DNA of 64,000 nt from assembly GCA_037130925.1 (NCBI GenBank), contig JBAXSC010000001.1:253877-317876 (forward strand), written 5' to 3'. This document shows, in pieces, positions 27,944 to 61,409 of this stretch. Below the pieces are notes generated by a model. That model was not told the DNA's origin, made no database searches, and saw nothing but the letters and a program-made list of their open reading frames with translations. The position numbers and the translations under genes are program-made. Each line of letters begins with the position of its first letter. Position 1 is the stretch's first letter. Source of the stretch: Candidatus Nomurabacteria bacterium. GTDB taxonomy: Bacteria; Patescibacteriota; Minisyncoccia; Phycocordibacterales; UBA5272.

Positions 27944-29671
27944 ATGACTCAATCCGAAGCTCTCGACATTTTAAAAATGGGACATTCTGTATTCTTAACT
28001 GGTGCTGCCGGCACTGGAAAAACTTTCGTATTAAATAAATATATAGAATATTTAAAAACTCACGATATCAATCCAGCTATCACAGCCTCAACTGGTATCG
28101 CAGCGACACATATTGGAGGACAGACTATTCACTCTTGGAGTGGAATAGGTATCTTAGACAAGCTCGATAGATACGCACTCGATAGACTAGAGCAAAATGA
28201 AAAGCTTTATAAGAGATATGAAAATATAAAAGTTTTGATAATAGACGAAGTATCAATGCTCCACTCTTCTCGTCTCGATATGATAAATAAACTTTTCAAA
28301 ACTTTTAGAAAAAGTGATAAACCTTTTGCTGGAGTACAGATAATTTTTTGTGGAGACTTTTTTCAACTTCCACCTGTAGTTAAAAATTCTTCTTCTGATT
28401 TTGGAAGCGAAAAAGAATTCGCCTATCACTCAAATGCTTGGCAAGAATTAAATCCAGTGATTTGCTATCTCTCGGAAAATTATAGACAAGATGATGAACA
28501 TTTATTAAAAATGCTAAATAATATTCGCTTTGAAAGAGATATAGAAGAAACTCATAAAAAATTAGAATTAAAAATAAAAAGTAAAAAAGAATTAGACAAA
28601 GATGTGATAAAACTTTTTACTCATAATATCGATGTCGACTCTATTAATAAAAAAGAATACGATTCACTTGATCAAGATGAAAAAGAATATAGATTTGAAA
28701 TGTATGAAAAAGGAAAAAAGAACTTAGTCGATGGATTAAAAAATAATTGTCTCGCTCCAGAAATTTTAAATTTAAAAATTGGAACAAAAGTTATTTTTGT
28801 CAGAAATGATATCAATAAACATTATCAAAATGGAACACTTGGAGAAGTGGTAGATTTTGATATTACAGGACTCCCTATTGTAGAAACTTTTGGTAAAAAA
28901 AGAATTACTACCGATCGTGAAGATTGGCAATTAACAAATGATGATGGAAAAGTATTAGCGGAAATATCACAAATCCCTCTACGCTATGCCTGGGCTATCA
29001 CAATTCATAAATCACAAGGAATGACACTCGATGCGGCCGAGATAGATCTCGCAAAGGCTTTTGGGTCTGGTATGGGATATGTTGCACTTTCTCGTGTACG
29101 AAAATTAGAAAATATTAAATTATTAGGAATTCATCCTGACGCTCTAAATGTAAATAAAGATGTCTTGAGACAAGATAAAGTCTTTAGAGAAAAATCAGAT
29201 CGTGCTAGTACTGCTCTCGAAAAATATTATGAGAATGACGAAATGAAAAAGAAGCTTGCTAAAAAACAAGAAATCTTTATTGAAATGTCTGGCGGTAGTC
29301 TCGAAGCTCACGAAATAAAAGAAGAAGAATTTGAAGAAAAAATAAAAGTTAAAACAACTACTGTGACTTTAGAATTTATTAAAAAAGGAATTCTTCCAAA
29401 AGAAATTGCTGAAAATAGAGATCTCACACTTGGGACAATAGTCGGACATGTCGAAGAACTTTTTGAGTCAAAAGAAATAAATGAAAAAGATATAAAATAT
29501 ATTTTAAAAGATATTGAAAAACATTATTCTTCAGCTGATATGAAAACTATTAAAAAAGTTTTGAAAGAAGATACTGGCCTCAAAGCAAAACATATTAAAT
29601 TAAATACTAAAGAAAAAATAGATATAGATTTTCACACTTTGAAATTATTAAGATTGGAAATCGAGAAATAA
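27944..29671 (+). CDS. Pif1/RecD-like SF1B helicase with C-terminal HTH-like domain
   Basis: GAAGTGKTF Walker A, LIIDEVSML, FCGDFFQLPPV and AITIHKSQGMTLD motifs. The C-terminal segment LTLGTIVGHVEEL looks HTH-like. Confidence 0.8.
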   Translation: MTQSEALDILKMGHSVFLTGAAGTGKTFVLNKYIEYLKTHDINPAITASTGIAATHIGGQTIHSWSGIGILDKLDRYALDRLEQNEKLYKRYENIKVLIIDEVSMLHSSRLDMINKLFKTFRKSDKPFAGVQIIFCGDFFQLPPVVKNSSSDFGSEKEFAYHSNAWQELNPVICYLSENYRQDDEHLLKMLNNIRFERDIEETHKKLELKIKSKKELDKDVIKLFTHNIDVDSINKKEYDSLDQDEKEYRFEMYEKGKKNLVDGLKNNCLAPEILNLKIGTKVIFVRNDINKHYQNGTLGEVVDFDITGLPIVETFGKKRITTDREDWQLTNDDGKVLAEISQIPLRYAWAITIHKSQGMTLDAAEIDLAKAFGSGMGYVALSRVRKLENIKLLGIHPDALNVNKDVLRQDKVFREKSDRASTALEKYYENDEMKKKLAKKQEIFIEMSGGSLEAHEIKEEEFEEKIKVKTTTVTLEFIKKGILPKEIAENRDLTLGTIVGHVEELFESKEINEKDIKYILKDIEKHYSSADMKTIKKVLKEDTGLKAKHIKLNTKEKIDIDFHTLKLLRLEIEK

Positions 29672-29724
29672 AAAAAGCCCCTCAAGAATGAGGTGCTTTT
29701 TGCAAAAGATCTGATTGTGAATAT

Positions 29725-30231
29725 TTATCCACGAGCTAATCTTAATGCTAAAACAAATCTTTTCCATCTTGGCAACTTATGTGTCGCCAAGATTTCTTTC
29801 ATTGTTTGATAAAGAATTTTAAACTGGGTAACTTTAACCTGTTCTACTTCAAAAGAAATAGTTGGAGCTATAGACCCCGCATGAATCTTTTCAAGCAAAA
29901 TCTCCATGTCTTTAATACCATCCCAAGAACTAGTTTCAATAAGAATAGAATTCTCTACTTTACTAATGTAATGAAAAGTAGCTTTAGCCTCTCCAAAATA
30001 ATAAACTCCGTAAGTTCTATGACTTACAAACTGCACGGTGTTTGATAAATAAGAAGCAGAAAGAAAATGTTTCTTAAAAAGACTTTCTTTTTCAAGAAAA
30101 ACTTTTGGAAAACTAACATCAACACGAGGACAACTTGCCCAGTCGTAAACTGTTACTCCACAAAGCTGACGAGAAGCAAAATCTGATAAACCATCTTTGA
30201 TTGTCCAGTCTTTTTCTAATTCTGGAGTCAA
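29725..30231 (-). CDS. hypothetical protein (168 aa, TTG start)
   Basis: Long ORF, visibly less AT-rich than its neighbours, with no recognisable motif. The first ATG is only at codon ~109, so initiation is uncertain. Confidence 0.4.
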   Translation of the reverse strand: MTPELEKDWTIKDGLSDFASRQLCGVTVYDWASCPRVDVSFPKVFLEKESLFKKHFLSASYLSNTVQFVSHRTYGVYYFGEAKATFHYISKVENSILIETSSWDGIKDMEILLEKIHAGSIAPTISFEVEQVKVTQFKILYQTMKEILATHKLPRWKRFVLALRLARG

Positions 30232-30278
30232 ATTTAAATATAAACGTACTGAAATTTTTCACTCATTTCTCCGATCAT

Positions 30279-30298
30279 TGATAACTGAATTGTTATCA
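30279..30298. promoter_or_regulatory. operator-like palindrome TGATAAC-N6-GTTATCA
   Basis: 7-bp perfect arms at 30279-30285 and 30292-30298, with a third TGATAA half-site at about 30307. It lies in the predicted 5' UTR of ORF 29725..30231. Confidence 0.4.
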
Positions 30299-30333
30299 TA
30301 CGTCTTTGATAATAAGGTAATATACGTATATCA

Positions 30334-30362
30334 TAATATATATATATATATATATATGTCAA
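30334..30362 (-). promoter_or_regulatory. promoter whose spacer is the (AT)11 tract
   Basis: Minus strand reads TTGACA + (TA)n + TATTAT/TATGAT. TATATT falls at 16 nt and TATTAT at 18 nt from the -35. Confidence 0.45.
30336..30357. repeat. (AT)11 dinucleotide microsatellite
   Basis: 22 nt of uninterrupted AT repeats directly abutting a minus-strand TTGACA (30357-30362). Confidence 0.95.
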
Positions 30363-30395
30363 GCATAATATAAGCAAACCAATATTTTAATATTA

Positions 30396-30424
30396 TTGAT
30401 TAATAATATTTTCTGTACTATAAT
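30396..30424 (+). promoter_or_regulatory. promoter of the 51-aa peptide gene
   Basis: TTGATT at 30396-30401, 17-nt spacer, TATAAT at 30419-30424. Confidence 0.55.
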
Positions 30425-30469
30425 TAATCAGGATTTAAACAATATTTTCTTTTCATTAAAAAACACAAG

Positions 30470-30625
30470 ATGACACAAGAAGTTATTACACCAGTGACTA
30501 CCATATTGCTAGAAATAGTATCTGCGATTGGTCTGGTTATTGTAATGATTATTCCTTTCATCTTGTTTAAAAATAGAGAAGATGAACATGTAATAAAAAA
30601 TTACAATAAGAATATAAAATTCTGA
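30470..30625 (+). CDS. 51-aa single-TM peptide (below the ORF-track cutoff)
   Basis: Reads MTQEVITPVTTILLEIVSAIGLVIVMIIPFILFKNREDEHVIKNYNKNIKF, with its own near-consensus promoter and a TGA stop. Confidence 0.4.
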   Translation: MTQEVITPVTTILLEIVSAIGLVIVMIIPFILFKNREDEHVIKNYNKNIKF

Positions 30626-30656
30626 CAATCAATTATTAATTGAAAGCCAGAATTTT

Positions 30657-31652
30657 TTATTTCACAAAATACATGTCTTGATTATAATCAGAGATACCAA
30701 TATACTCCACATCTTTTATTTCTTCTCCATCAAGATCGAGATTGATAGTATTTTCAGAAAAATTCTTTTTACCACCACCGCTTTGAATAAATTTATAAAC
30801 TTTTTCAAAATCACGACAATATCTACAACCTTCACCTTCTACAGTTTCGTTTTTACATTTATACTCCCCTTTTTCTCTCAAATTTTTAATTTTAATTCCT
30901 ATTTCTAAAATCTTTTTTTCTGTCTCTTTTATATCTTCCAATTTTCCTTCATCAATTTCTATGACATGAAATTCATCATGCTCACTATTTTCTTTTTTAT
31001 TATCATGATCGAGATACCAATAAGCCGCTTCTTTTATTTTATAAATTTTCTTAGAATTTTCTTTCATTAAATTCGTAATCAGTAAATAATAAATTGGAAA
31101 TTGAAATGAATCATCATCTTCATCATTGCGACCAGTTTTAAAATCAACTATTCTGATAGCGTCATCTTTTTCTAAATATTCGGTCCAGTCTATAGATCCA
31201 CATAAAATTAAATTTTCCTCTGTACTCAAATAATAATTTGGTATCATATCTCCTTTATAAAAATAGTTTAAAGGAATTATCTTATTTAATAAAATTCCAG
31301 GATTTGCGACAACTCTCTTTATCATTTCTTCACCACGAGAAAAAAAACTATTTTCTTCTTCGAGGTCTTTGAATCCTCCTTTTTTTCCTTTGTATTTATT
31401 CCATTCTTTTCTAAAATTTTCTAAAAGATTTTCTTTGATTTCTTTTTCTCTTTCATCACTTTTTATTTTCTTTAAATCTTCGATGACTTTATGGACCGCG
31501 ATACCGAGAGTGAGATATGGTGAAGCGATATTTATTTTTCTGCGAGTTGATGGATCTTTATAAACATTTTTCAAAAAATAAAGTCTGTCACATGACAAAA
31601 AATCATTAATAGAAGAATGTGATATCCAAACTGATTTGTATTTATCGGGCAT
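30657..31652 (-). CDS. Cas4/AddB-like PD-(D/E)XK nuclease with Cys cluster
   Basis: GSIDWTE, IVDFKTG (D/ExK) and QFPIYYLL (QxxxY) motifs. Cys21 plus a C-terminal C-x9-C-x2-C is reminiscent of Fe-S nuclease domains. Confidence 0.7.
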   Translation of the reverse strand: MPDKYKSVWISHSSINDFLSCDRLYFLKNVYKDPSTRRKINIASPYLTLGIAVHKVIEDLKKIKSDEREKEIKENLLENFRKEWNKYKGKKGGFKDLEEENSFFSRGEEMIKRVVANPGILLNKIIPLNYFYKGDMIPNYYLSTEENLILCGSIDWTEYLEKDDAIRIVDFKTGRNDEDDDSFQFPIYYLLITNLMKENSKKIYKIKEAAYWYLDHDNKKENSEHDEFHVIEIDEGKLEDIKETEKKILEIGIKIKNLREKGEYKCKNETVEGEGCRYCRDFEKVYKFIQSGGGKKNFSENTINLDLDGEEIKDVEYIGISDYNQDMYFVK

Positions 31653-31751
31653 GGTTTTTGAAATGTTTTTTTAAATAAAATGTATTTTCGCGAGTTTTCG
31701 CTTGCGTGGCGCACGAGAGAAAATATATTTTATTTATGAAAAGATAATTTC

Positions 31752-34700
31752 TTATATTTTACCATTTAAAAGATCTTCTTCAAATTTCTCAATATCTTTT
31801 AATGTTAATTCTTCTTTTTTTAATCCCGTCTTTTCATTTATGAAATATGATGAAGTATCTGGAAAATCTAAATTCATGACTTTTTGATAAACTATTTTTG
31901 TTAAACTTTTAACTCTTTCTAAAAGCTCTTCATCTATGTCAAGCTCTAAAATATTTATTTTCTTTTTTGAATCTGCCTCAAGGAATTCTATATATCCAGA
32001 TTCTAATTCATATCCATTATAGCTCCTTGAATTTTTAATAAGAATAGAATAAAAAGCTAATTGATATTTAAAGAAGTGAAGCTTGATCTTGTCATAAGGA
32101 CTACTACCATCATCCCAATCTTTAAAACTCTTCCCTGTTTTGAGATCTGTCACTTTTACTTGATTACCAAGAATTTCCATTTTATCTATCTTTCCTGTTA
32201 ATTGAGCATTATCAAGAGTCACGCCTTCATTTGCGAAATTTACTTCGACTTCTATTTTTCTATCTTCTTTTCTTTCTTCTAAATCTTTCAAATAAATTTC
32301 TAAATTCTTTACTCCTGATTCATAATATTTATCAAAATCTATTTTATCTAAGCTTCCTCTCTCGAGAGCTTTTTTAAAATAATTAATTATTTTTTCTAGA
32401 TCTGGTTTTTCTTCATATTTTTTAAAATACAAATAATAATTTTGCATCGCTTCATGCATCGCAGATCCATAGACTGAGCTGGCTGTCATAGCCTGAGGAA
32501 AGCGAAGAAGGTTTTGCTCGATGAATTTCTCTGGACCAATTTTGCTAATATTCAAAAAGTTAATGAGATGCGTAACAGGCATTTTATAATTTTCTAAAAG
32601 TCTCTCAAGTAAAATCTTTTCATCTTCGATCAATGGATTTCTCTCTGTGATATAGAGACTATTCACTATATTTTTATTGATACCTGAGCTTGTCGAAGGG
32701 TCAGAATTTTCTAAATTCTTTTCTTTATTTTCTTTCATCTCTTCTTCATTTTCATCACTTAATAATTTAGAAAATTTAGTACTATTATTTGTAATATATA
32801 AAGTATGCTTCGCACGAGTCATAGCCACATAATAAAGTCTCACTCTATCATTAATATCATCACTCGCTGGAAGAAGTGGTAGATTAACAGGCATATCAAT
32901 TTTGTTGGCACGCTTTTTACCATTCCATTCATCTTCATCACTATTCATAATAAAAACATATTCATACTCGAGACCTTTACTCTTGTGAGCAGTCTGTAGA
33001 ACTATCGCATTTTTACTTGTCGCAAAAGGAGAAGTTAAAGTCAATGAAAGATTATTGTTGTTACTATAAATTTCTACAAAAGTTTTTAAATCTTTTGCAT
33101 ACAAAATCTCTCCATTTTTATACTCTCTCAAGACACCCATAAATGTACGAAGTGCGAAGAGAAAATCAAGATATTCTGGCTTGTTGTGCTCAAAATTATC
33201 TTTACCGAAATAATACTCTCTAAATGGCGAAATATAGCCCGTAGAGAGGCTTTTCACCTCATCACCGTCATCTACACTACTATCTATCTCCCACTCTCTA
33301 GTGCCTATTATTTTGTCTAATAAATATGGCAATGGCATTGATTTACTATCAGCTATCAGATCTATTAAAAATCTCGCAATATTCGCAACTTTTTCATCTT
33401 TACTATTTAGCATGACAGATATCCAAGAAACTCTGTTTTTTATTTTCTCTCCAAATTCTCCGATAGATATTTCTCCAGCTCTAACTTCTTCTGCTATTTT
33501 CCAGATAGTCAGTCTATCAATATTCCAAAATTTATAAGACAAAATCTCTGGAAGAAAATCTTCTCTCATATTTTCTGTACCAGTATCTACAAACTCGACT
33601 ATCTTTATCAATTCTTTTATCGGCTGTTTATCAAAAACATTTTCTTTTTTCTCATAGCTATATGGCAACTTATGCTCATTTAAAATCTGTGCCATCAATT
33701 TCAAATTTGCATGACTACGAGAAATAATTGTGATCTCTTTTGGATCAACTTTTTTATCTAAAATATTTTTTATCTCTCTCGCTATGAAATCCATCTCATG
33801 ATGTGGATTATCAAAACTCTCTCTGATTATTTTTCCGCCATGCTTTTCTAAAAGCTTTTTATTTTCTGCTCGGATATTTTTATTAATATCTTTTGGGAAT
33901 CTCACCTCGAGTCTGTCATCTATTTTTGTAATTAAATTTCTAGCTTGATCGAGAATGTTTTGAGTTGATCTATAATTTTTATTTAAAGTGATGAGCTGTA
34001 CACCTTTGTAGCTATTTATAAACTTTGTAATATTATCTAGCTCTGCTCCTTGGAATTTAAAAATAGCCTGATCATCATCACCGACGGCCATAACATTTGG
34101 TCTACCCTCATTGACTGGATTACTTGTCAGATTTTTCACTAAAGAAAATTGTGAGTCAGATGTATCTTGGAATTCGTCTATCATAATGTATTGATATTTT
34201 TCTTCAAGCTCACCACGAAGTGCCTCATTCTTTTCTAATTCATGAGAAACTTTAAATATCATGTCATCAAAATCGTAAAATCCTTTTTCATACATTGCTA
34301 AATTATATTTCTCATACACATCAGCGAGTGAGAGCCACTTTTCTATTTTTCCATCTTTACTATCTTTTAAAATTAAAATCCCATCTTCATTTCTCGTAAA
34401 GTAATTATCTTTCCAAGATGTGAGATTGTTCGCCTTTCCAGAATCTTCTGATTGCTTTATTTCTAGAGAAAGAGTAGTAGATAAAAATCTCGCTGTATCA
34501 TTATTTTTAATATTAATTAACTCTCTATAAATATTGAGATACGCATCACGCAAAACATCATATTTACTTTTACCTTTTATCTCAGCAAAGATTTCTCCTA
34601 ATACATTATTTACTTCTTGATATTCTTCTTGATTTTTATTTATCACATTTTTCCATTCTTCTCCTGTGAGATTTCCTTTTTTTAAGGCAGAGATAGTACT

Positions 34701-35180
34701 CAAAATATCATATAGATATGTATAGCCGAGCTCTGGATGACGAGAAGAAAGAGGATTGTCACGATTTAATTTTTCTAAAATATTTTCTAAAATTCCAATT
34801 CTCTCTACATCACTAGCCGGACGAAAACTCGCCCCTTCAAAAAAGTATTCTCCGTATCTACTCATCACATCACTCGCAAATGCATGGAAAGTATAAATGG
34901 CGACTCTGTATCCTGCCTCACCTATCAATCCGACTAGTCTCTCTCTCATATTTTGCGCTCCACTCTCTGTAAATGTGAGAAGCAAAATATTCCCAGCGGA
35001 GACTTGAGTCTCTTGCAATATCTTTGCAGTACGAAGTCCGAGCAACTCTGTCTTTCCACTTCCTGGTCCAGCGACAACGAGCACAGGCCCGTCGATCATA
35101 TCGACAGCCATTCTTTGTTTATCGTTTAGAGAATTATATCGATCTTGAAATGTTTTTGAGGATTTTTGAGAGTGGGTCAT
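31752..35180 (-). CDS. UvrD/PcrA-type SF1A helicase fused to a C-terminal RecB-like nuclease (AddA-like)
   Basis: AGPGSGKT, IMIDEFQDTS, VGDDDQAIFKFQGA and NYRSTQNIL motifs. The C-terminal part has GKIDKME...VTDLKTGK...YQLAFYSIL (PD-(D/E)XK). Confidence 0.85.
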   Translation of the reverse strand: MTHSQKSSKTFQDRYNSLNDKQRMAVDMIDGPVLVVAGPGSGKTELLGLRTAKILQETQVSAGNILLLTFTESGAQNMRERLVGLIGEAGYRVAIYTFHAFASDVMSRYGEYFFEGASFRPASDVERIGILENILEKLNRDNPLSSRHPELGYTYLYDILSTISALKKGNLTGEEWKNVINKNQEEYQEVNNVLGEIFAEIKGKSKYDVLRDAYLNIYRELINIKNNDTARFLSTTLSLEIKQSEDSGKANNLTSWKDNYFTRNEDGILILKDSKDGKIEKWLSLADVYEKYNLAMYEKGFYDFDDMIFKVSHELEKNEALRGELEEKYQYIMIDEFQDTSDSQFSLVKNLTSNPVNEGRPNVMAVGDDDQAIFKFQGAELDNITKFINSYKGVQLITLNKNYRSTQNILDQARNLITKIDDRLEVRFPKDINKNIRAENKKLLEKHGGKIIRESFDNPHHEMDFIAREIKNILDKKVDPKEITIISRSHANLKLMAQILNEHKLPYSYEKKENVFDKQPIKELIKIVEFVDTGTENMREDFLPEILSYKFWNIDRLTIWKIAEEVRAGEISIGEFGEKIKNRVSWISVMLNSKDEKVANIARFLIDLIADSKSMPLPYLLDKIIGTREWEIDSSVDDGDEVKSLSTGYISPFREYYFGKDNFEHNKPEYLDFLFALRTFMGVLREYKNGEILYAKDLKTFVEIYSNNNNLSLTLTSPFATSKNAIVLQTAHKSKGLEYEYVFIMNSDEDEWNGKKRANKIDMPVNLPLLPASDDINDRVRLYYVAMTRAKHTLYITNNSTKFSKLLSDENEEEMKENKEKNLENSDPSTSSGINKNIVNSLYITERNPLIEDEKILLERLLENYKMPVTHLINFLNISKIGPEKFIEQNLLRFPQAMTASSVYGSAMHEAMQNYYLYFKKYEEKPDLEKIINYFKKALERGSLDKIDFDKYYESGVKNLEIYLKDLEERKEDRKIEVEVNFANEGVTLDNAQLTGKIDKMEILGNQVKVTDLKTGKSFKDWDDGSSPYDKIKLHFFKYQLAFYSILIKNSRSYNGYELESGYIEFLEADSKKKINILELDIDEELLERVKSLTKIVYQKVMNLDFPDTSSYFINEKTGLKKEELTLKDIEKFEEDLLNGKI

Positions 35181-35883: not shown

Positions 35884-37977
35884 CTAATTCTCTTTATAAT
35901 CTTCACCCTTTTTCAAAACTTTAACAAAAATACCTTGTATTTTTACTTCTTCATCGTATGGAGTTATCACAATATCTTTATGTCTTGAATTTGTAGAATT
36001 AGGTTTCAAAATAACATTACCACCTTTTGTTCTGTATTCTTTTAAAATTGCATCATCACCCATTAAAGCTACAACAATATTACCATCTACAGGATGATAA
36101 TCTTTTCTACACAAAACCAAATCACCATCATTAATATTTTTCTTATTCATAGAATCACCATTAGTTCTTAATACAAAATATTTTCTTCCTTTATACATAA
36201 GATCATCTTTAACTAGTAAAGTATCAGTTGGTACTGAGTCTGCAGTCCTTGTATCTCCACAACCAATTGAATCGTACAGTTCAACATTTCTGGTTATAAA
36301 ATCCTTTATCAAATATGGAGATATTATATTTTTATAATCATTCTTTTTAACAAAATTTTCTTTTTTTATTTCTTTAGAAAATTCTTCTGTAATATATTTT
36401 CTTAAATTTTCATCACAAATATAAACATAAGTACCTTTTATAGCTCTAGTCAAAAGAACTTTATATATATTTAAAACATAATTTAATAATTCTCCATAAG
36501 AATCTAAAGATCTTTTTCCATTAATATCTTTATATAATTCTTTTTTTACAATAAGTTTTTTATTTTCAAAATCATAAGAAAGTTCTGGACCAATAATAAC
36601 TCCAGCATAATTTAGATCGTATCCTTGAACTGTATGTATACACCCAATTTCATTAATAGCATTTTTAGAATAAATCCAATTATCATTAGTGGAATTCCAT
36701 CTTAAAGACAAATTATCTATTTCTATATCAAATTTTGAAATATCTTTTTTGGATTTCCACTCCCACGCATACCCAGCAAACATTCTACATATTCCAAATT
36801 CTCTATCTTTTTTCTTTATCAAATTAATCATTTCATCTAAATTATCAAAAATTTTAAATTCATAATTTTTAAAATCTTTAATTTTAAAAATTTCATTACT
36901 AAATAATTTTTTTATATTACTTATATATTCTTCACCGCCTTGCACACGAAGTTGTGTACTTAATTTATAAATTATTGGATCTTTAACTATTTCTTTAAAT
37001 AAATCATGTCCTATATCAGACGGAGTAACACTTTGATCTTTATCATAAAAAAATATTTGATATTTTGATTTTTCCATAATCCAATGAAGTTGAGTTCCTT
37101 TGTTTATATCTAATCCTAATTTAATATTAGTATCATCGAAAGCTTTCATATTAGAATTATTTTTTCTTGTTCTTAATCTATGAGATTCGTCTATTACCAA
37201 TATGTCATAACTTTCATTTGAAACGTCTGAAGGGCCAATAACATTTACTTTTTTCAAAGATTTTATATTTCTCACAACTTTCTTTAGTGTTTTTCTTAAG
37301 GAAGTCATAGAAACAACAAGACCAATTTTATAGTCTTTTGTACTTTCTTTTTCTTTTAACATCTTTATAAGATATAAAGCTAAAATAGTTTTACCTGTAC
37401 CAGCTCCACCATTTACAATAAATGATTTTTCTTTTTCTATCTTAATATTTTCAAAAATAGAATCAGCTATATTTATTTGGTCTTGTGTTAATGCTGTGTA
37501 TGGAGAGTATTTAAATAAATCGCTATTCTTTAACTCCATTAAATCTTGAGTTACTAATTTAAATTCTTTCAACTTGTCCCATATAATTCTTATTTTAGAT
37601 TCTCTTCTATCTTTATCAAAATAATTATGATCTACCTCTCCTTCATTTTTATTTTGTAAAAAATATTTACCATCAGCAGATAAATATCTTATTAACAATG
37701 ATTCAATATCTAAAACTACAGATTTATTAGCTTCTGTATCATATACAATATAAAAGTCTTTTAAAGAATTTCTTTGTTCATTTTTAAAATGAGTAACTAA
37801 TCTACTAATTGCACTATGTGTTTGACCAACATACATTTCTTCCTTTCCTGAGATAAGGTACACGACTGGCCAATTCACACCAAAATCAGTATTTTTTAAT
37901 TGATCAAATCCTTTATCGTCAAAAGACATATGACTCAAAGAAATATCTTCTTCTTTTTTATTAGGATTCTCTTTCAT
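35884..37977 (-). CDS. GIY-YIG-like nuclease / DUF2075 P-loop helicase-like ATPase / S24 LexA-UmuD peptidase fusion (697 aa)
   Basis: Residues 38-111: VVYLISG..MYVGQT..R59..E92..N (GIY-YIG pattern). Residues 190-197: GGAGTGKT, followed by VIDESHRL and FFYDKDQS (DUF2075-like). Residues 572-697 align to the LexA/UmuD catalytic domain (GDSM Ser609, LKEY Lys646, Cys573-Gly574 cleavage-site motif). Confidence 0.8.
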   Translation of the reverse strand: MKENPNKKEEDISLSHMSFDDKGFDQLKNTDFGVNWPVVYLISGKEEMYVGQTHSAISRLVTHFKNEQRNSLKDFYIVYDTEANKSVVLDIESLLIRYLSADGKYFLQNKNEGEVDHNYFDKDRRESKIRIIWDKLKEFKLVTQDLMELKNSDLFKYSPYTALTQDQINIADSIFENIKIEKEKSFIVNGGAGTGKTILALYLIKMLKEKESTKDYKIGLVVSMTSLRKTLKKVVRNIKSLKKVNVIGPSDVSNESYDILVIDESHRLRTRKNNSNMKAFDDTNIKLGLDINKGTQLHWIMEKSKYQIFFYDKDQSVTPSDIGHDLFKEIVKDPIIYKLSTQLRVQGGEEYISNIKKLFSNEIFKIKDFKNYEFKIFDNLDEMINLIKKKDREFGICRMFAGYAWEWKSKKDISKFDIEIDNLSLRWNSTNDNWIYSKNAINEIGCIHTVQGYDLNYAGVIIGPELSYDFENKKLIVKKELYKDINGKRSLDSYGELLNYVLNIYKVLLTRAIKGTYVYICDENLRKYITEEFSKEIKKENFVKKNDYKNIISPYLIKDFITRNVELYDSIGCGDTRTADSVPTDTLLVKDDLMYKGRKYFVLRTNGDSMNKKNINDGDLVLCRKDYHPVDGNIVVALMGDDAILKEYRTKGGNVILKPNSTNSRHKDIVITPYDEEVKIQGIFVKVLKKGEDYKEN

Positions 37978-38321
37978 TATAATTTATTATATTTTTTATG
38001 ATTTCCTTTCGCTTTATCTACTGGATATTTTTCTTCATTCTTAGTTTGTTTTTTATCTAAAGCTTTCAAGACGTCAATATTTAAATCATAACTCATAAGT
38101 AAAACCCAATACAAAACGTCTGCCAACTCGTCACTTATATCTTCTTTATGTTCTACAACATATTTATCTAACTCTTCTCCATTCTTCCACTGAAAATGTT
38201 CTAATACTTCTGTAGATTCTAAAACCAAAGATAAAGCCAAATCTTTAGGATTGTGAAATTGCTTCCAATCTCTAGCATCTCTAAAATCAACTATTCTTTG
38301 TATAAGATTTTCCAAATTCAT
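37977..38321 (-). CDS. MazG-like all-alpha nucleotide pyrophosphohydrolase
   Basis: RDWKQFHNPKDLALSLVLESTEVLEHFQW and SDELADVLYWVLLMSYDL (EExxE/D helices). The ATG at 38321 is preferred over the track TTG at 38384. Its stop overlaps the next ATG (TAATG). Confidence 0.7.
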   Translation of the reverse strand: MNLENLIQRIVDFRDARDWKQFHNPKDLALSLVLESTEVLEHFQWKNGEELDKYVVEHKEDISDELADVLYWVLLMSYDLNIDVLKALDKKQTKNEEKYPVDKAKGNHKKYNKL

Positions 38322-38328
38322 ATAGTAT

Positions 38329-38337
38329 ATTATAGCA
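38329..38337 (-). promoter_or_regulatory. extended -10 promoter of the mazG-like operon (predicted leaderless)
   Basis: The minus strand reads TGcTATAAT, 7 nt upstream of the ATG at 38321. Confidence 0.5.
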
Positions 38338-38387
38338 CCAAGATAAATATTTAAAAACACTTCGATTTCTCGAAATGTTTTCAAATT

Positions 38388-48443: not shown

Positions 48444-48505
48444 AATAACATAAAATTAATATAAACAAAAACCTCTTCTTTCGAAGAGGTTTTTGTTATT
48501 TTGTA

Positions 48506-48826
48506 TTAAGCTATTGAAGTAACTTTGATTTCAAAATATGGTTGTCTGTGACCATTTTTCTTAAAGTATCTAGACTTTGGCATGTATTTAACAACTTCTA
48601 CTGTTTTATGTTTTGCAATATCAATTATTTCCGCCTCAACCTTTACTCCAGGAACAACAGGTGTTCCAACTTTCACATCACTTCCATTAGCAACAAGTAA
48701 AACCTTGTCAAAAGAAAGCTTATCACCAGCCTTATACTCACCAATAATCTTCTCGATTTTTAGCTTTGTTCCAACTTCCACCTTGTATTCTTTTCCTCCT
48801 GTTTGAATAACTGCAAAATTAGTCAT
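48506..48826 (-). CDS. rplU: 50S ribosomal protein L21
   Basis: MTNFAVIQTGGKEYKV...GHRQPYFEIKVTSI. The start is set at Met-4 of the track ORF. Confidence 0.9.
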   Translation of the reverse strand: MTNFAVIQTGGKEYKVEVGTKLKIEKIIGEYKAGDKLSFDKVLLVANGSDVKVGTPVVPGVKVEAEIIDIAKHKTVEVVKYMPKSRYFKKNGHRQPYFEIKVTSIA

Positions 48827-52538: not shown

Positions 52539-52641
52539 ATTTTTAAATTATAACATGACGAGAAAAGATAATAAAAAAAATAAATCCCCCTAATTTTTAG
52601 GAGGTTTACGAAGTAAGTAAAATACTTACCTCTCTTTCTTT

Positions 52642-52830
52642 TTATCTACCATACTGTTCTTCTAAAAGAGCCCAATACGGTTGAGAATTATAATTTGGAT
52701 CGTCAGGACTCTGACCCCAAATATCAAATTCATCTAATCTGACTCTTAGTTCTTCTTCTAAAGAAGAGTCATCATTAACAACAACTTCATTTTGTTGTTT
52801 TTCTAATTCATTTAAATCATTAACTGACAT
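52642..52830 (-). CDS. hypothetical small acidic protein (62 aa)
   Basis: ORF followed by two tandem hairpins (52590-52640). Confidence 0.4.
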   Translation of the reverse strand: MSVNDLNELEKQQNEVVVNDDSSLEEELRVRLDEFDIWGQSPDDPNYNSQPYWALLEEQYGR

Positions 52831-52980
52831 AAAAAATGTTTTTTAGATTAAAAAAAATATTAAAGAACTATGAATATAGTCTATCATATTAAATAATATT
52901 TGTCAAGCGATTTTTAATAATAATATAAAAACAATCTCAAAATAACAAAAATACCCATATTTTATAGGGGTATTTTATTT

Positions 52981-53009
52981 TTGACAAATAAAGATTATTA
53001 TATTATAAT
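52981..53009 (+). promoter_or_regulatory. perfect consensus sigma70 promoter
   Basis: TTGACA at 52981-52986, exactly 17 nt, TATAAT at 53004-53009. The track ORF's TTG start is this -35 box. Confidence 0.7.
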
Positions 53010-53052
53010 TATAGTATTAGCAATATTGCTTCTCGTTCTTAAATTTAAAGCT

Positions 53053-53253
53053 ATGAGCACAAAAGTTAGGATAATCTTAAATCAACCAACTAGTGATCAA
53101 ATAAATAAAGAAAAACCATACATTACATTGGTTAATGACAAAACAAATCAAGTCCTTTGTACTTTTTCAGTCGAAAAAACAGATTTATCTAAAAAACCTT
53201 TTAAATTAGATATAACTTACATTATTACTGATGAAATTAAAGTAGAAAAGTAA
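53053..53253 (+). CDS. hypothetical small protein (66 aa from the ATG at 53053)
   Basis: The first ATG downstream of the consensus promoter; a terminator hairpin lies at 53283-53315. Confidence 0.45.
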   Translation: MSTKVRIILNQPTSDQINKEKPYITLVNDKTNQVLCTFSVEKTDLSKKPFKLDITYIITDEIKVEK

Positions 53254-53317
53254 AATACTGTTCTTATGATTCTGAATTAAAAAATGCAACATATTTTATT
53301 ATGTTGCATTTTTATTT

Positions 53318-56840: not shown

Positions 56841-57050
56841 ATGAAACAGATAAATGAAAAAGAATATCTGGAAGCTAAAAAAGTAGTTGACATGTATGAA
56901 TTGCAAGAAAAGATAAAAAAACAGAACTCTTGTAATCATCCTGAACATGCAAGAACTTTACGTCATATGAGTAATAGCCAATCTATCCATTACTATTATC
57001 AATGTGACTTGTGTAATTTTTGTTTTCCAGATTGGGAAGAACCTGCGTAA
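56841..57050 (+). CDS. hypothetical Cys/His-rich small protein (69 aa)
   Basis: CNHPEH...CDLCNFC. A terminator lies at 57069-57099. Confidence 0.45.
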   Translation: MKQINEKEYLEAKKVVDMYELQEKIKKQNSCNHPEHARTLRHMSNSQSIHYYYQCDLCNFCFPDWEEPA

Positions 57051-57102
57051 AATTAATTTTTATTTAAAAATCCCCTAGCAATTGCGAAAGGGATTTTTTA
57101 TT

Positions 57103-57184
57103 TAGAATCACCCTGTTTCTACAAATTTTTATTTCATATTCATTCATAAAAATTTAAGAAACAGACCTCTTTTAAGAAAGAGGT
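57103..57184. repeat. left structured inverted repeat
   Basis: 11-nt box at 57103-57113, internal hairpin TGTTTCT..AGAAACA, and a 21-nt palindromic box at 57164-57184. Confidence 0.85.
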
Positions 57185-57254
57185 ATTAAATACAAACTTT
57201 TTAAGTTTTATTAAATGTAATCATGAAAACGAAAATAATTAAAATCGAATAATT

Positions 57255-57644
57255 CTAATTTATTTTTAAAGAATTCAAAATTTCATCTAACTTTTTATAA
57301 GTTTTTTCAGAATTATTCAAAATACTTTTATTTGTAATTCTAATAATTTTTAAATTATATTTTTGTAAAAACAGACTTCTCTCCATATCTCTTTCTTTTA
57401 ATTTTTCATGAATTTCTCCATCAATTTCTATAATCAATTTTAATTTTGCTATATAAAAATCAACAATAAAATATCCTATTATTTTTTGTCTCATTACATT
57501 TAATTCTAATTTAGATAAATATTCATTCCAAATTTTCTTCTCGGCTTCGGTCTGATTTTTTCTTAAATCTCTAGAGATATCTTTCAATTTTGGATCATAA
57601 GGAAGAAATAATTCATTTTTTACTAAAAATTTTTCTCTTTTCAT
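57255..57644 (-). CDS. DUF559 (Vsr-like PD-(D/E)XK) endonuclease domain protein
   Basis: LRKNQTEAEKKIWNEYL...RQKIIGYFIVDFYIAKLKLIIEIDGEIH...KIIRITN matches the DUF559 pattern. Confidence 0.8.
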   Translation of the reverse strand: MKREKFLVKNELFLPYDPKLKDISRDLRKNQTEAEKKIWNEYLSKLELNVMRQKIIGYFIVDFYIAKLKLIIEIDGEIHEKLKERDMERSLFLQKYNLKIIRITNKSILNNSEKTYKKLDEILNSLKIN

Positions 57645-57676
57645 ATCTTATATAAATAAATTTTATCATGTATTTC

Positions 57677-57759
57677 ACCTCTTTCTTAAAAGAGGTCGAT
57701 TTACAAAATATTTTGAGAATTTATTCGAGAAAATATTTTAGGTAAATCGGGTGATTCTA
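57677..57759. repeat. right structured inverted repeat
   Basis: 21-nt box at 57677-57697, internal hairpin GATTTAC..GTAAATC, and an 11-nt box at 57749-57759 (reverse complement of the left-arm boxes). Confidence 0.85.
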
Positions 57760-57767
57760 AAATAAAA

Positions 57768-57790
57768 AACCTTCACACTATGTGAAGGTT
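57768..57790 (-). terminator. rpoC terminator
   Basis: AACCTTCACA / TGTGAAGGTT, a 10-bp stem with a T-run on the minus strand. Confidence 0.8.
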
Positions 57791-57806
57791 TTTTATTATT
57801 TTATAA

Positions 57807-60800
57807 TTAATCTCTATCTTGAATTCCTGTTCCAGCTGGTACAAGTTTACCGATAATTACATTTTCTTTTAGTCCGTGTAATTTATCAACCTGCCCTCTA
57901 GCAGATGCATTAATCAAAACTTTTGTTGTGTGCTGGAATGACGCAGATGACAACCATGAATTTGTAGTAAGAGCAACATCAGAGATACCACAGATTAGAT
58001 GTGCACCCTTTGCTGGAACACCTCCAGCATTTTTTACTCTTTCATTTTCTGATCTAAAGTCAGAAACTTCTACCACATCACTTTGAGTAAAGAGAGTATC
58101 ACCTACTTCTTTAATCTTCACACGAGAAAGCATTTGTTTAATTATTAATTCCATATGCTTTCTTGAAATTGAAGCTCCTTGTAATTCATAAACTTTATTA
58201 AGTTCATTTACAATGTAGTCTTCTGTAATTTCTCTTCCTGCTAAATCATAAAGTTGTTCGATATTTAATGATCCATCTGTTAAAGGCTGACCTTTTACTA
58301 TTTTGTCTCCAACTTTAACAATTGCTCTACGAGAATAAGCCATTTCGTATTCGATCTTTAGTCCTTTTTTCTTTGCAAGATTATATGAACCATCATCATT
58401 ACTCAAGACAACAATACTCTTTGCTTTACCGTCTCTTTTAACATCTACAACTTCACCATTTGAAAGAGATATAACTCCAGGATTTTTTGGATTACGTCTT
58501 TCAAAGATTTCAGCAACACGAGGAAGACCTTGTGTGATGTCGACTCCAGCTACCCCTCCTGAGTGGAAGGTACGCATTGTAAGCTGTGTTCCAGGCTCTC
58601 CAATGGCTTGTGCGGCAACAATACCCACAGCCTCACCAATCTTCACTAATTCATTTCTAGCAAGGTCTAGACCGTAACATCTTTGACATACACCATTTAA
58701 AGATTCACAAGAAAGTGGTGAGTAAATGTTTGCTTCTTCTATTCCTGACTCTTCAATTAATTTAGCTTCTTCTTTACGTACTAAATGTCCTTTCTTGAAT
58801 AAAATGTTTCCATTTTTATCCATCAAATCTTGAGCAATAACTCTACCTTTTAGACTCTTTGATAATGGAATTTCGATACCTAAAACATTTTCTGTTTTTA
58901 AGATCTTAGAATTTTTTGTTCCACAACTTTCTTCTGAAACGATCACATCTTGTGACACATCAACTAGTCTTCTTGTTAAGTATCCAGCTTCAGCTGTCTT
59001 AAGAGCCGTATCAGATGTTCCCTTTCTAGCTCCATAAGTTGTAATGAAATATTCAATTGGAGAAAGACCTTCTTTATTTGATGAAATAATTGGGAAGTCA
59101 ATATTCTTTCCTGATGAGTTCACAATAATACCCTTCATACCCGCAAGCTGAATAAGTTGTTTTACAGAACCTCTAGCTCCTGATGTAAGAAGATTGTAAA
59201 CTGATCCAAATTTATCCATACCTTTTGCTGGCATAAGATTTTCAATTTCCTTTCTAATTGTTGTCCAGTTTTCGATAGTCTTTTGATATCTTTCATCTTC
59301 TGAAAGCAATCCTTCTTCAAAATATTTTTTAATATTTTGTTCTTCGACTCTACCTTTTGCAATAATTCCTCCTTTTTCTTCTGGAACTTTCACTGCATCA
59401 ATGCTCCAAGTTGTACCTGAGATTGTCGCATATTTGAATCCGAAAGTTTTTATTTTATCAATAATTTTTGGAGCAATAGTAAATCCGTACTGCATGATAA
59501 CTTTATCAATGATTTGATTCATTTTATTTCCACCGATTTGTTCATCGATATATTCAAAATCATCAGGTAAGATTGAGTTGAAACGTAGTCTTCCAACTGT
59601 TGTTTCAAATCTTTTTCCTTCGTATTTTTTATATTTATCTTTTGTTGTAGGACAAACATGAATCTTTGCACGCAAATCTACAATACCGAATTCATTCGCA
59701 GTAATAGCGTCATTTGGTGAAGAAAAATATTTTCCTTCTCCTTGAGCTCCTGGGATTTCAGTTGTTAACCAAAAACATCCTAGTAACATGTCCATACGAG
59801 GATTTACAATTGAGTCTCCTGATCCTGGCTTTAATAAGTTTTTATTTGCAGCCATTAATTCGCGAGCTTCTTCTTGTGCTTTCTCAGAAAGTGGTAAGTG
59901 AACAGCCATTTGGTCTCCGTCGAAGTCAGCGTTGAAAGCTGTACAAACAAGCGGATGAAGTTGAATAGCATTTCCTTCGATCATTTTTGGTTTGAAAGCT
60001 TGAATACCAAGTCTATGCAATGTTGGAGCACGGTTTAGAAGAACATATTTTCCTTCGATTACTTCTTCAAGAATTTCCCAAACTTCTGGAATACTATCTT
60101 CAATTAATTTATTCGCACCTCTGATATTGAAAGTAAATTCTCTTTCAAGTAATTTTGAAATTACAAAAGGTTTGAATAATTCAAGAACCATATGCTTTGG
60201 AAGTCCACACTCATCAAGCGCAAGATCTGGACCAATAACGATCACAGAACGACCAGAATAGTCAACACGTTTTCCAAGAAGATTTTGTCTAAATAGTCCT
60301 GACTTTGATTTAATACCATCAGCAAGAGATTTTAATTGTCTCTTTTGTCCGATAATAGTTGTAGCTTCTTGACCACGTCTCTTTGAATTATCTATAAGAG
60401 CGTCAACAGCTTCTTGTAAGATTCTTTTTTCATTTCTTAAAATAACATCTGGCGCAGAAATTTCTTTCAATTTTAATAGACGATTATTTCTATTTATAAC
60501 TCTTCTGTAAAGATCATTTACATCACTTGTTGCATATCTTCCTCCTTCAAGTGCAACCATAGGACGAATTCCTGGAGGAATAACTGGAAGTGCTGTAAGA
60601 AACATCCACTCTGGTCTGATATCAGCTGTTTTGAAAGCTCTCACAAGTGAAAGTCTTTTTTCTTGTTTTTCTCTTTCAAGAGTAGAAGCTTTTTCTAATC
60701 TTGCTAAAATTTCCTTTTCTAGAACATCTAAATCCATTCCTTGGAAAATATTATAAATAGCCTCCGCACCAATTTGCGCTTCGAAAGCAATGCTATATCT

Positions 60801-61409
60801 CATTGAATATCTGTGATAAGTAATTTCATCTAAAATTTTTCTCTCACGAATATCTTCGATTTCTTTTTTAGTAGCAAGCATTAATTCTTTCAACTTATCT
60901 TTTGTTTTATCATCAGTAGCTGCTTTAATTTTTGCTTTGAATTCACTTTCAAGATTTTTAAGAATTTCTTCTTTTTCTGCTTTATTTACTTTTGTAATAA
61001 TATAATTAGCAAAGTAAACAACTTTCTCAACTTCACCAGCAGGCTCTCCTAAAATAAGAGCAATACGAGAAGGAATGTCTCTTAAAAACCAAATGTGTGC
61101 AACAGGAGAAGCTAATTCAATATGACCCATTCTCTCACGACGAACAATTGATTTTGTAACTTCAACTCCACATTTTTCACAAACAATATCTTTATATCTA
61201 ATTCTTCTATATTTTCCACAATAACATTCGTAATCTTTTTCTGGACCGAATATTTTTTCATCGAAAAGACCAGATCTTTCAGAACGGCCTGTACGGTAGT
61301 TTATAGTTTCAGGTTTTGTAACTTCTCCAAAACTCCATGAACGAATAGCTTCTGGTGAGGCAATTTTAATCTGTAAAGCTTCAAAATTTGTTGTATCTAT
61401 TGTTTTCAT
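57807..61409 (-). CDS. rpoC: DNA-directed RNA polymerase beta-prime subunit
   Basis: NADFDGDQM catalytic motif and an N-terminal zinc motif (CYCGKYRRIRYKDIVCEKCG); 1200 aa. Confidence 0.97.
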   Translation of the reverse strand: MKTIDTTNFEALQIKIASPEAIRSWSFGEVTKPETINYRTGRSERSGLFDEKIFGPEKDYECYCGKYRRIRYKDIVCEKCGVEVTKSIVRRERMGHIELASPVAHIWFLRDIPSRIALILGEPAGEVEKVVYFANYIITKVNKAEKEEILKNLESEFKAKIKAATDDKTKDKLKELMLATKKEIEDIRERKILDEITYHRYSMRYSIAFEAQIGAEAIYNIFQGMDLDVLEKEILARLEKASTLEREKQEKRLSLVRAFKTADIRPEWMFLTALPVIPPGIRPMVALEGGRYATSDVNDLYRRVINRNNRLLKLKEISAPDVILRNEKRILQEAVDALIDNSKRRGQEATTIIGQKRQLKSLADGIKSKSGLFRQNLLGKRVDYSGRSVIVIGPDLALDECGLPKHMVLELFKPFVISKLLEREFTFNIRGANKLIEDSIPEVWEILEEVIEGKYVLLNRAPTLHRLGIQAFKPKMIEGNAIQLHPLVCTAFNADFDGDQMAVHLPLSEKAQEEARELMAANKNLLKPGSGDSIVNPRMDMLLGCFWLTTEIPGAQGEGKYFSSPNDAITANEFGIVDLRAKIHVCPTTKDKYKKYEGKRFETTVGRLRFNSILPDDFEYIDEQIGGNKMNQIIDKVIMQYGFTIAPKIIDKIKTFGFKYATISGTTWSIDAVKVPEEKGGIIAKGRVEEQNIKKYFEEGLLSEDERYQKTIENWTTIRKEIENLMPAKGMDKFGSVYNLLTSGARGSVKQLIQLAGMKGIIVNSSGKNIDFPIISSNKEGLSPIEYFITTYGARKGTSDTALKTAEAGYLTRRLVDVSQDVIVSEESCGTKNSKILKTENVLGIEIPLSKSLKGRVIAQDLMDKNGNILFKKGHLVRKEEAKLIEESGIEEANIYSPLSCESLNGVCQRCYGLDLARNELVKIGEAVGIVAAQAIGEPGTQLTMRTFHSGGVAGVDITQGLPRVAEIFERRNPKNPGVISLSNGEVVDVKRDGKAKSIVVLSNDDGSYNLAKKKGLKIEYEMAYSRRAIVKVGDKIVKGQPLTDGSLNIEQLYDLAGREITEDYIVNELNKVYELQGASISRKHMELIIKQMLSRVKIKEVGDTLFTQSDVVEVSDFRSENERVKNAGGVPAKGAHLICGISDVALTTNSWLSSASFQHTTKVLINASARGQVDKLHGLKENVIIGKLVPAGTGIQDRD

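Follow-up and report, generated by a model that had tools for sequence, protein, structure and literature searches.

Downstream of rpoC (57807-61409) in the 64-kb stretch of Nomurabacteria DNA analysed here (the window) lies a 657-bp unit (57103-57759) that consists of one small nuclease gene between structured inverted repeats. Each arm of the unit is made up of an exact 11-mer, followed by a hairpin of about 50 nt and then by an exact palindromic 21-mer. In the left arm (+ strand), box A (TAGAATCACCC, 57103-57113), the outer terminal inverted repeat, is followed by the variable hairpin V_L (TGTTTCT..AGAAACA, 57114-57163) and the inner palindrome H (GACCTCTTTTAAGAAAGAGGT, 57164-57184). In the right arm (− strand), exact inverted copies of box A (57749-57759) and of H (57677-57697) enclose the variable hairpin V_R (GATTTAC..GTAAATC, 57698-57748). 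The two hairpin segments, 50 nt in one arm and 51 nt in the other, are unrelated in sequence, and each is closed by pairing of the last C of the 11-mer with the first G of the 21-mer. The first-pass annotation of this DNA had described the same layout, and with all positions read directly we found it to lie far beyond chance. Allowing up to three mismatches, the 21-mer occurs only at these two sites in the window (0.01 expected); the exact 11-mer likewise occurs only in the two arms, and with up to one mismatch it has three matches against 0.56 expected. The arms each fold as two adjacent hairpins, at −21.8 kcal/mol on the left (z −5.0) and −22.0 kcal/mol on the right (z −3.75), and none of 200 shuffled sequences folded as well. 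A Logan contig from SRR12676973 (L001) that is identical to the window ends 3 nt past the downstream H (L001 2751-2774); this break in the assembly, which lies within the arm, could stem from a heterogeneous population or from nothing more than low coverage.

The unit is abutted on both sides by terminators. T1, a bidirectional terminator behind rpoC with a 17-pair stem and a T-run (57761-57797, + strand), adjoins the right end, and T2, the terminator-like hairpin of the small ORF at 56841-57050 (57066-57097, + strand, read directly), adjoins the left end. The similarity between the two ends of the unit extends about 10 nt outward into the T-tracts of both terminators (TTTTTTATT(T)). The unit had been placed between two convergent terminators; its position between terminators stands, but the convergence concerns only ORF 56841-57050, as the nuclease gene and rpoC share one strand.

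The sole open reading frame enclosed by the arms is, as had been annotated, a 129-aa DUF559 gene encoding a Vsr-like PD-(D/E)XK nuclease (57255-57644, − strand). It matches PF04480 with an E value of 4.3e-24 and 84.9 bits against a cut-off of 20.6, and NCBI has an identical protein that comes from a Candidatus Nomurabacteria MAG. The sequence also matches that of structure 3HRL (E 3.5e-8), and the predicted structure (pLDDT 87) finds its best fold matches in 3HRL, which is a DUF559 structure, the catalytic domain of I-Bth0305I (3R3P) and Vsr (1VSR); PvuRts1I-type enzymes are matched as well, and there is no extra domain. The catalytic residues D62, E73, D75, H79 and D86 are invariant across 13 relatives, and at the level of sequence the nuclease is evidently under purifying selection. 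DUF559 (PF04480) is a widespread bacterial family with a solved structure. In the literature that we searched no biological role is assigned to it and no cassette of this kind is described. The unit offers the family a concrete, testable context.

The gene appears to carry its own expression signals. The best minus-strand promoter-like site in a consensus scan (57660-57689) has its −35 box, TTAAGA, in the loop of the right H, followed by an 18-nt spacer and a TG-extended −10 box, TAAAAT, that ends 16 nt before the ATG. Relatives have comparable boxes (TGATAAAAT, TGATATAAT or TATAAT) in the interval from the upstream module to the ATG. Read on the minus strand, the left H (57184-57165) forms a terminator-like hairpin downstream of the gene, and it is the only terminator-like site that the gene has. 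Because the best promoter lies between the upstream arm and the ATG, the upstream arm would be outside the gene's own transcript. This bears on an earlier suggestion of a pan-handle mRNA, with the arms as its 5' and 3' UTRs. Such a local regulatory structure, in which pairing of the arms would control stability or translation, would account for the 11 + 21 nt of complementarity between the ends and for the stable hairpins, but it is at odds with the position of the promoter, with arms that are direct repeats in some relatives (L010, L011 and L024, see below) and with the unit being an insertion that has sister copies at other loci. No Rfam family matched the arms of nine related loci, and at permissive thresholds the window region gave sub-threshold, terminator-like matches only. 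We regard the pan-handle as extremely improbable.

In the three nearest genomes (L028, L029 and L030, with RpoC 93%, 89% and 88% identical), the gene order is rpoB-rpoC-small ORF-dnaG-rpoD and the DUF559 gene is absent. These genomes have one bidirectional terminator behind rpoC; T1 is missing from them, and T2 resembles the single terminator of L028. The sequence TAAATAAAAAATCCCTTT, directly outside the right-hand 11-mer, is common to the window and the empty site of L028 (7620-7690), which places the right boundary within about 2 nt of box A. A comparison of the locus downstream of rpoC, proposed in the first-pass annotation, thus uncovered empty sites in all three nearest relatives. The rpoC-dnaG spacer varies in another respect as well: its small convergent ORF differs in each of the four related genomes (window 56841-57050; L028 7689-7907; L029 7666-8070; L030 7683-8057), and the four are mutually unrelated. 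That of the window (ORF69) has a weak Ogr/Delta zinc-finger match. On this comparison, the rpoC-dnaG spacer is hypervariable, and its variation does not depend on the DUF559 unit.

A sister unit is found upstream of rmuC in the related genome L002, where the homologue is 73% identical to the DUF559 protein of the window; loci with a 73%-identical homologue between a small ORF and rmuC comprise L002-L009 and L025. By alignment, the window contains the empty target site of this L002-type insertion (52539-52641, − strand), in which a terminator ending in GGGGGATTTATTTTTTTTAT is followed by TATCTTTT and then the rmuC promoter. The sequence runs uninterrupted (GGGGGATTTATTTTTTTTAT/TATCTTTT...ATG) over the junction, which falls near 52571/52570. 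The filled site of L002 reads GGGGGATTTATTTTTTTAT/ATAATCACCC...576 bp...GGGTGATTAT/TTTTTAATTTT, and its flanks are homologous to those of the window (ORF62 53% and RmuC 81% identical). The L002 insert starts and stops exactly at its terminal inverted repeats, which are 10 bp long as compared with 11 bp in the window, and it stands directly after the T-tract of a host terminator, an abutment that it shares with the window unit; the L002 element carries no terminator of its own. A search for target-site duplications, also proposed earlier, excluded any longer than 2 nt at the L002 site, where at most 2 nt (AT or TA) are compatible with flanks that are AT-rich and diverged. Apart from the T-tract, the flanks of the rpoC/ORF69 and ORF62/rmuC insertions are unrelated. 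The spacer between rpoD and rmuC is itself a variable intergenic region, about 780 nt long in the window (52539-53317), where it holds ORF62 (52642-52830, − strand) and ORF90 (52981-53253, + strand), and about 70 nt long in L028.

Presence/absence polymorphism therefore occurs at otherwise conserved loci, the unit being absent behind rpoC in L028-L030 and the window being empty at the L002 site. Instead of the same gene with the same flanks in all relatives and no other copies, we found a unit that is absent from the nearest relatives and has a sister elsewhere. These comparisons establish, as far as sequence can, that 57103-57759 is an insertion with exact ends and with sister copies at other loci. 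The earlier reading of the unit as a mobile element is thereby upheld, by the empty nearest relatives, by the sister unit at another locus and by related units at further loci. We consider the mobility of the unit as a whole well supported and probably correct. Filled and empty alleles of an exact-ended cassette are both at hand.

Aligning the two units, we found their arms to be collinear and the DNA between them to be inverted. The left arm of the window is 90% identical to the upstream arm of L002, and the right arm, including V_R, is 79% identical to the downstream arm, with no change of orientation in either; what lies between the H palindromes, the gene segment, is 73% identical and inverted. 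From this alignment, the gene segment can take either orientation between the H palindromes. The stem halves of V_L are identical in the two genomes, with all differences falling in the loop, and the V_R of the window right arm and its counterpart in the L002 downstream arm differ by compensatory changes at the stem base. The first-pass annotation had called for a covariation test of the hairpin, and at the base of V compensatory changes occur at 4 of the 8 base pairs, with 100% of cells paired, among four sequences only. Position 3 of box A and the base in the H loop are G in both arms of the window and T in both arms of L002. At these positions the two arms evolve in concert, as expected if one protein must recognise both ends, or if the arms recombine. 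Just inside the left H, local alignment picks out a putative decayed inverted copy of the L002-type V_L (57200-57236, + strand), a weak and marginal match to the reverse complement of L002 V_L with a score of 36 that 1 of 500 shuffles reached. Putative decayed A' boxes near the stop codon were indistinguishable from AT-rich noise and were discarded.

An orientation that differs between the window and L002 raises the possibility of a programmed inversion switch, in which the H palindromes would be crossover sites of an invertase and orientation would control expression. The 21-bp perfect inverted repeats have the form that such a switch calls for, and DUF559 and 'endonuclease domain-containing protein' are both enriched among predicted inversion targets, which the survey leaves unexplained (PMC9881135). 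Against a switch, the promoter lies inside the invertible segment, so that flipping would leave the gene unswitched; no invertase was found in the 64 kb; and inversion alone leaves presence/absence at different loci unexplained. We think a switch very unlikely.

Homologues of 62-73% identity occur in five chromosomal contexts, that of the window included: behind rpoC, between yqeY and rmuC, beside sodA, between rpsN and a giant gene, and upstream of secG. Each of them with enough flanking sequence has flanking repeats, at z 8-65 against shuffled controls. All follow one order of parts. A C-rich box A, which reads TAGAATCACCC, ACTGAAACCACCC or AATACAAACCCCGA, is followed by V, a spacer or hairpin whose sequence is free, and then by H, a GC-rich palindrome that has one pyrimidine arm and one purine arm. 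The window, L002 and L018 have inverted modules, L011 has direct ones, and L026 has both; L010 has direct pairs of self-closed A-V-H-A' units, and in L024 those units are reversed relative to the gene. The sequence type of the arms goes with the clade of the protein. L018 and its clade have a box A that repeats the 5' half of H (TACAAACCCC), a shared 10-mer; the likeness is weaker in the other clades and in the window it is suggestive only. With a covariance model of the arms, the diverged units of L010 and L024 were recovered (23-25 bits). The only new matches of the model, at window 48471-48546 and L002 6267-6340, proved to be ordinary rplU terminators and were rejected. The stem of the rplU terminator (AAAAACCTCTTCGAAAGAAGAGGTTTTT) is very like the H palindrome, and on that account H resembles host terminator stems of this lineage.

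The cassette also changes in place. L018 and L019, which have the same protein at the same locus, differ by 228 nt, made up of 164 nt of new DNA and a second copy of a 64-nt module. The 164-nt insert (L018 2730-2893, absent from L019) forms a long GC-rich hairpin (GCCCCTACTTGTCT..AGACAAAGGGGC) beside the duplicated 64-nt arm module. At the rpsN site, DUF559 proteins are 80.5% identical, as compared with 80.3% for S8 and 76.4% for L6, so the cassette there dates back to the divergence of the hosts; the shared site is explained by vertical descent, and movement is rare. The unit is thus a rarely moving cassette, which by these identities can persist long in place under purifying selection, and its DUF559 gene may be of use to the host. 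For the DUF559 nuclease family, no small mobile gene cassette had been described in the literature searched.

Several of these features would also fit a cassette without a dedicated enzyme, its arm modules being repeated regulatory units through which homologous or site-specific recombination of the host shuffles, inverts, duplicates and occasionally relocates the gene. H is terminator-like and adjoins the promoter, and stems like it occur in host terminators; the direct-repeat brackets of L010 are 85-87 nt long at 100% identity, a module is duplicated in L018 relative to L019, and the gene segment is inverted between collinear arms. There are precedents of two kinds. PeSL cassettes of T4-type phages (PMC2839356, PMC4122927) have repeated stem-loop and promoter modules that flank small accessory ORFs and bring about modular shuffling; the DUF559 unit differs from them in lying in a bacterial chromosome rather than in phage hyperplastic regions, in empty sites that have no module, and in ends that are set by short inverted repeats. 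Restriction-modification units that arise by 'insertion with long target duplication' (PMC2853133) place a nuclease unit in direct repeats of about 60-90 nt, as seen here in L010, L024, L011 and the L018/L019 polymorphism, whereas the arms of the window and L002 are inverted and the empty site holds no repeat copy. Neither the rmuC site of the window nor the rpoC site of L028-L030, both empty, holds an arm module, and the exact limits of the insertion, set by short terminal inverted repeats, speak for recognition of the ends and not for homology. Recombination without a dedicated enzyme is in our view distinctly unlikely.

A search for further copies, proposed earlier as a check on mobility, was productive in part: it gave related units at further loci but no additional arms, either elsewhere in the window or across the roughly 130 kb of related loci. 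Within the window the unit is single-copy, with no second DUF559 gene and no further arm elsewhere, and the related loci (about 130 kb) contain no solo arms. The exact 21-mer had four matches in 185,579 species-representative genomes, all in other phyla and apparently by chance, and one in JGI metagenomes, inside an IS66-type transposase ORF and likewise judged to be chance; the source genome is evidently outside both sets. On these scans, the 21-mer is not a conserved high-copy repeat. In viral contigs we found no match for the L010-type unit, and a short gapped arm pattern gave 77 matches of which the covariance model confirmed none, so we took them as chance. We scanned 40 other window ORFs, each at least 110 aa long, and found no transposase, integrase or invertase; to that extent the statement that transposase and integrase are lacking holds within the 64 kb.

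These results weigh on whether the unit is a non-autonomous, MITE-like insertion cassette, with ends recognised by a transposase encoded elsewhere and DUF559 as cargo, for example a repair or defence gene. Perfect terminal inverted repeats of 10-11 bp, small size, an interior free of transposase and the precise ends of the L002 insertion all agree with this reading. L010 and L024 in addition resemble a composite element, with the gene between two self-closed units of about 87 nt that have 13-bp inverted ends of their own, and the cargo gene is under host-like purifying selection. Like the qnr-carrying mobile insertion cassettes (PMC3913671), the DUF559 unit has short terminal inverted repeats around a passenger-sized interior without a transposase, and it shares with them small size, intergenic insertion and precise ends. 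It differs in having no known cognate insertion sequence, no clear target duplication and apparently a single copy, in ends that add subterminal hairpins and a palindrome to the inverted repeats, and in a nuclease family that travels with three diverged end types. The last point is unexpected for arbitrary cargo, and the transposase was not found in the 64 kb, nor were further copies or solo ends found in the window or the related loci, nor was there a clear target-site duplication. To our knowledge, insertion sequences are few in the streamlined genomes of this group, which also counts against the reading. We judge a MITE-like cassette to be a serious but rather doubtful alternative.

Homing was the other mobile reading put forward at first pass. 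The unit shares with homing endonuclease genes of the Vsr-fold EDxHD family (I-Bth0305I, PMC3239194) the nuclease fold, 3R3P being among the best matches. Homing genes are further resembled in that this is a selfish-looking single gene with presence/absence polymorphism, situated between conserved housekeeping genes and equipped with its own expression signals. Unlike I-Bth0305I, the DUF559 protein is only 129 aa long and has no extra DNA-binding domains, and unlike homing endonuclease genes in general the gene lies outside any intron or intein. We know of no homing genes with terminal inverted repeats, which the DUF559 unit does have. Classical site-specific homing does not describe the unit, since the two insertions on record went into unrelated sites. 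Of the original proposal of a MITE-like or homing-like element, mobility is therefore retained and classical homing is not; a copy number as high as that of MITEs was not seen in the sequences searched.

Two further classes of element were considered and set aside. An integron gene cassette carries one attC and stands in an array beside the intI integrase; the DUF559 gene has two arms, and the window has no array and no integrase among the ORFs scanned. IS200/IS605-type elements have subterminal imperfect hairpins with a conserved stem and a free loop, and the DUF559 ORF is, like theirs, about 130 aa long; IS200/IS605 elements or class C group II introns insert 3' of a short motif or behind intrinsic terminators and so spare genes, as the DUF559 unit does. 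Here, though, the enzyme is a PD-(D/E)XK nuclease and neither an HUH transposase nor a reverse transcriptase, the terminal repeats are truly inverted, and Rfam found no intron RNA structure. IS200/IS605 elements encode an HUH (Y1) transposase and have ends without inverted repeats, and on both counts they are ruled out.

The best full explanation that we can offer, held tentatively and at somewhat less than an even chance, is that the unit's own nuclease acts on repeated half-sites and host recombination completes the movement. If box A corresponds to a half-site of H, each arm would offer about three copies of one putative binding motif, which would most likely be recognised by the element's own nuclease. 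With its three putative half-sites in each arm, its hairpins preserved through compensatory changes and its two arms evolving in concert, the arm architecture looks like a set of protein-binding sites. We infer recognition by the own nuclease from the precedent of a Vsr-fold homing endonuclease that acts as a homodimer on a pseudopalindrome: I-Bth0305I is a homodimer with highest specificity for a 14-bp pseudopalindrome (PMC3239194), by analogy with which recognition of H by a DUF559 dimer is plausible. Rare movement would start from breaks or nicks at the arms, or at AT-rich sites beside terminators, and be finished by the host through recombination or repair. The inversions, the module duplications and the forms with direct repeats would arise as arm modules recombine with one another. 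Counting against this explanation are the single copy in the 64 kb, the related loci free of solo arms, the chance-like matches to the 21-mer, the age of the cassette at the rpsN site, the want of an established target-site duplication, and a Vsr-fold domain of 129 aa for which no strand-transfer activity is known. H may also serve as the gene's terminator and as an insulator, and insertion behind a host terminator would then be harmless. The cassette allows a test of whether a 129-aa Vsr-fold nuclease can drive DNA mobility, it may explain the clustering of inverted repeats at DUF559 genes in inversion surveys, and it provides a documented mobile element from the candidate phyla radiation, whose genomes are streamlined.

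A bolder version of this explanation, which we think unlikely, is that the DUF559 nuclease is itself the mobility enzyme of a previously unrecognised class of autonomous elements, tiny at about 0.6 kb, that combine terminal inverted repeats with subterminal hairpins. The nuclease would bind the half-sites of box A and palindrome H, cut the folded or duplex ends, and so allow the cassette to be excised or copied into AT-rich sites behind terminators. If autonomous movement were real, the palindromes and inverted repeats at distant DUF559 genes (L032, L034, L036 and L038) would be footprints of one widespread selfish system, as would the enrichment of DUF559 among predicted inversion targets, and a very large family of unknown function would gain one.

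Distant members of the family differ in their flanks. The majority of the distant DUF559 genes, on viral contigs, have no flanking repeats, but four of those that match best carry H-like palindromes such as GCCTCCCTTGTAAAGGGAGG. On the viral contig L036 (1383-2136), GCCTTCCCCTTGAGGGGAAGG palindromes, which read PSPQGEG in their reverse frames, stand on both sides of a distant DUF559 gene, as do direct repeats of 21-54 nt (TTGATATACAAGGGACAAAAA); the product of a small upstream ORF (1137-1376) looks by eye like a four-helix bundle.

Elsewhere in the window, 27944-29671 encodes a PIF1-like helicase with an HTH_40 domain, and a gene pair at 30657-35180 encodes a UvrD-type helicase with a PD-(D/E)XK nuclease domain and a PD-(D/E)XK nuclease, a pair that we take to be AddAB-like. 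This host recombination machinery (27944-35180) could process breaks made at the cassette. Further along, at 35884-38384, a Schlafen-group-3-type helicase fused to a Peptidase_S24 domain adjoins a MazG-like protein, and the two may form a stress or defence module.
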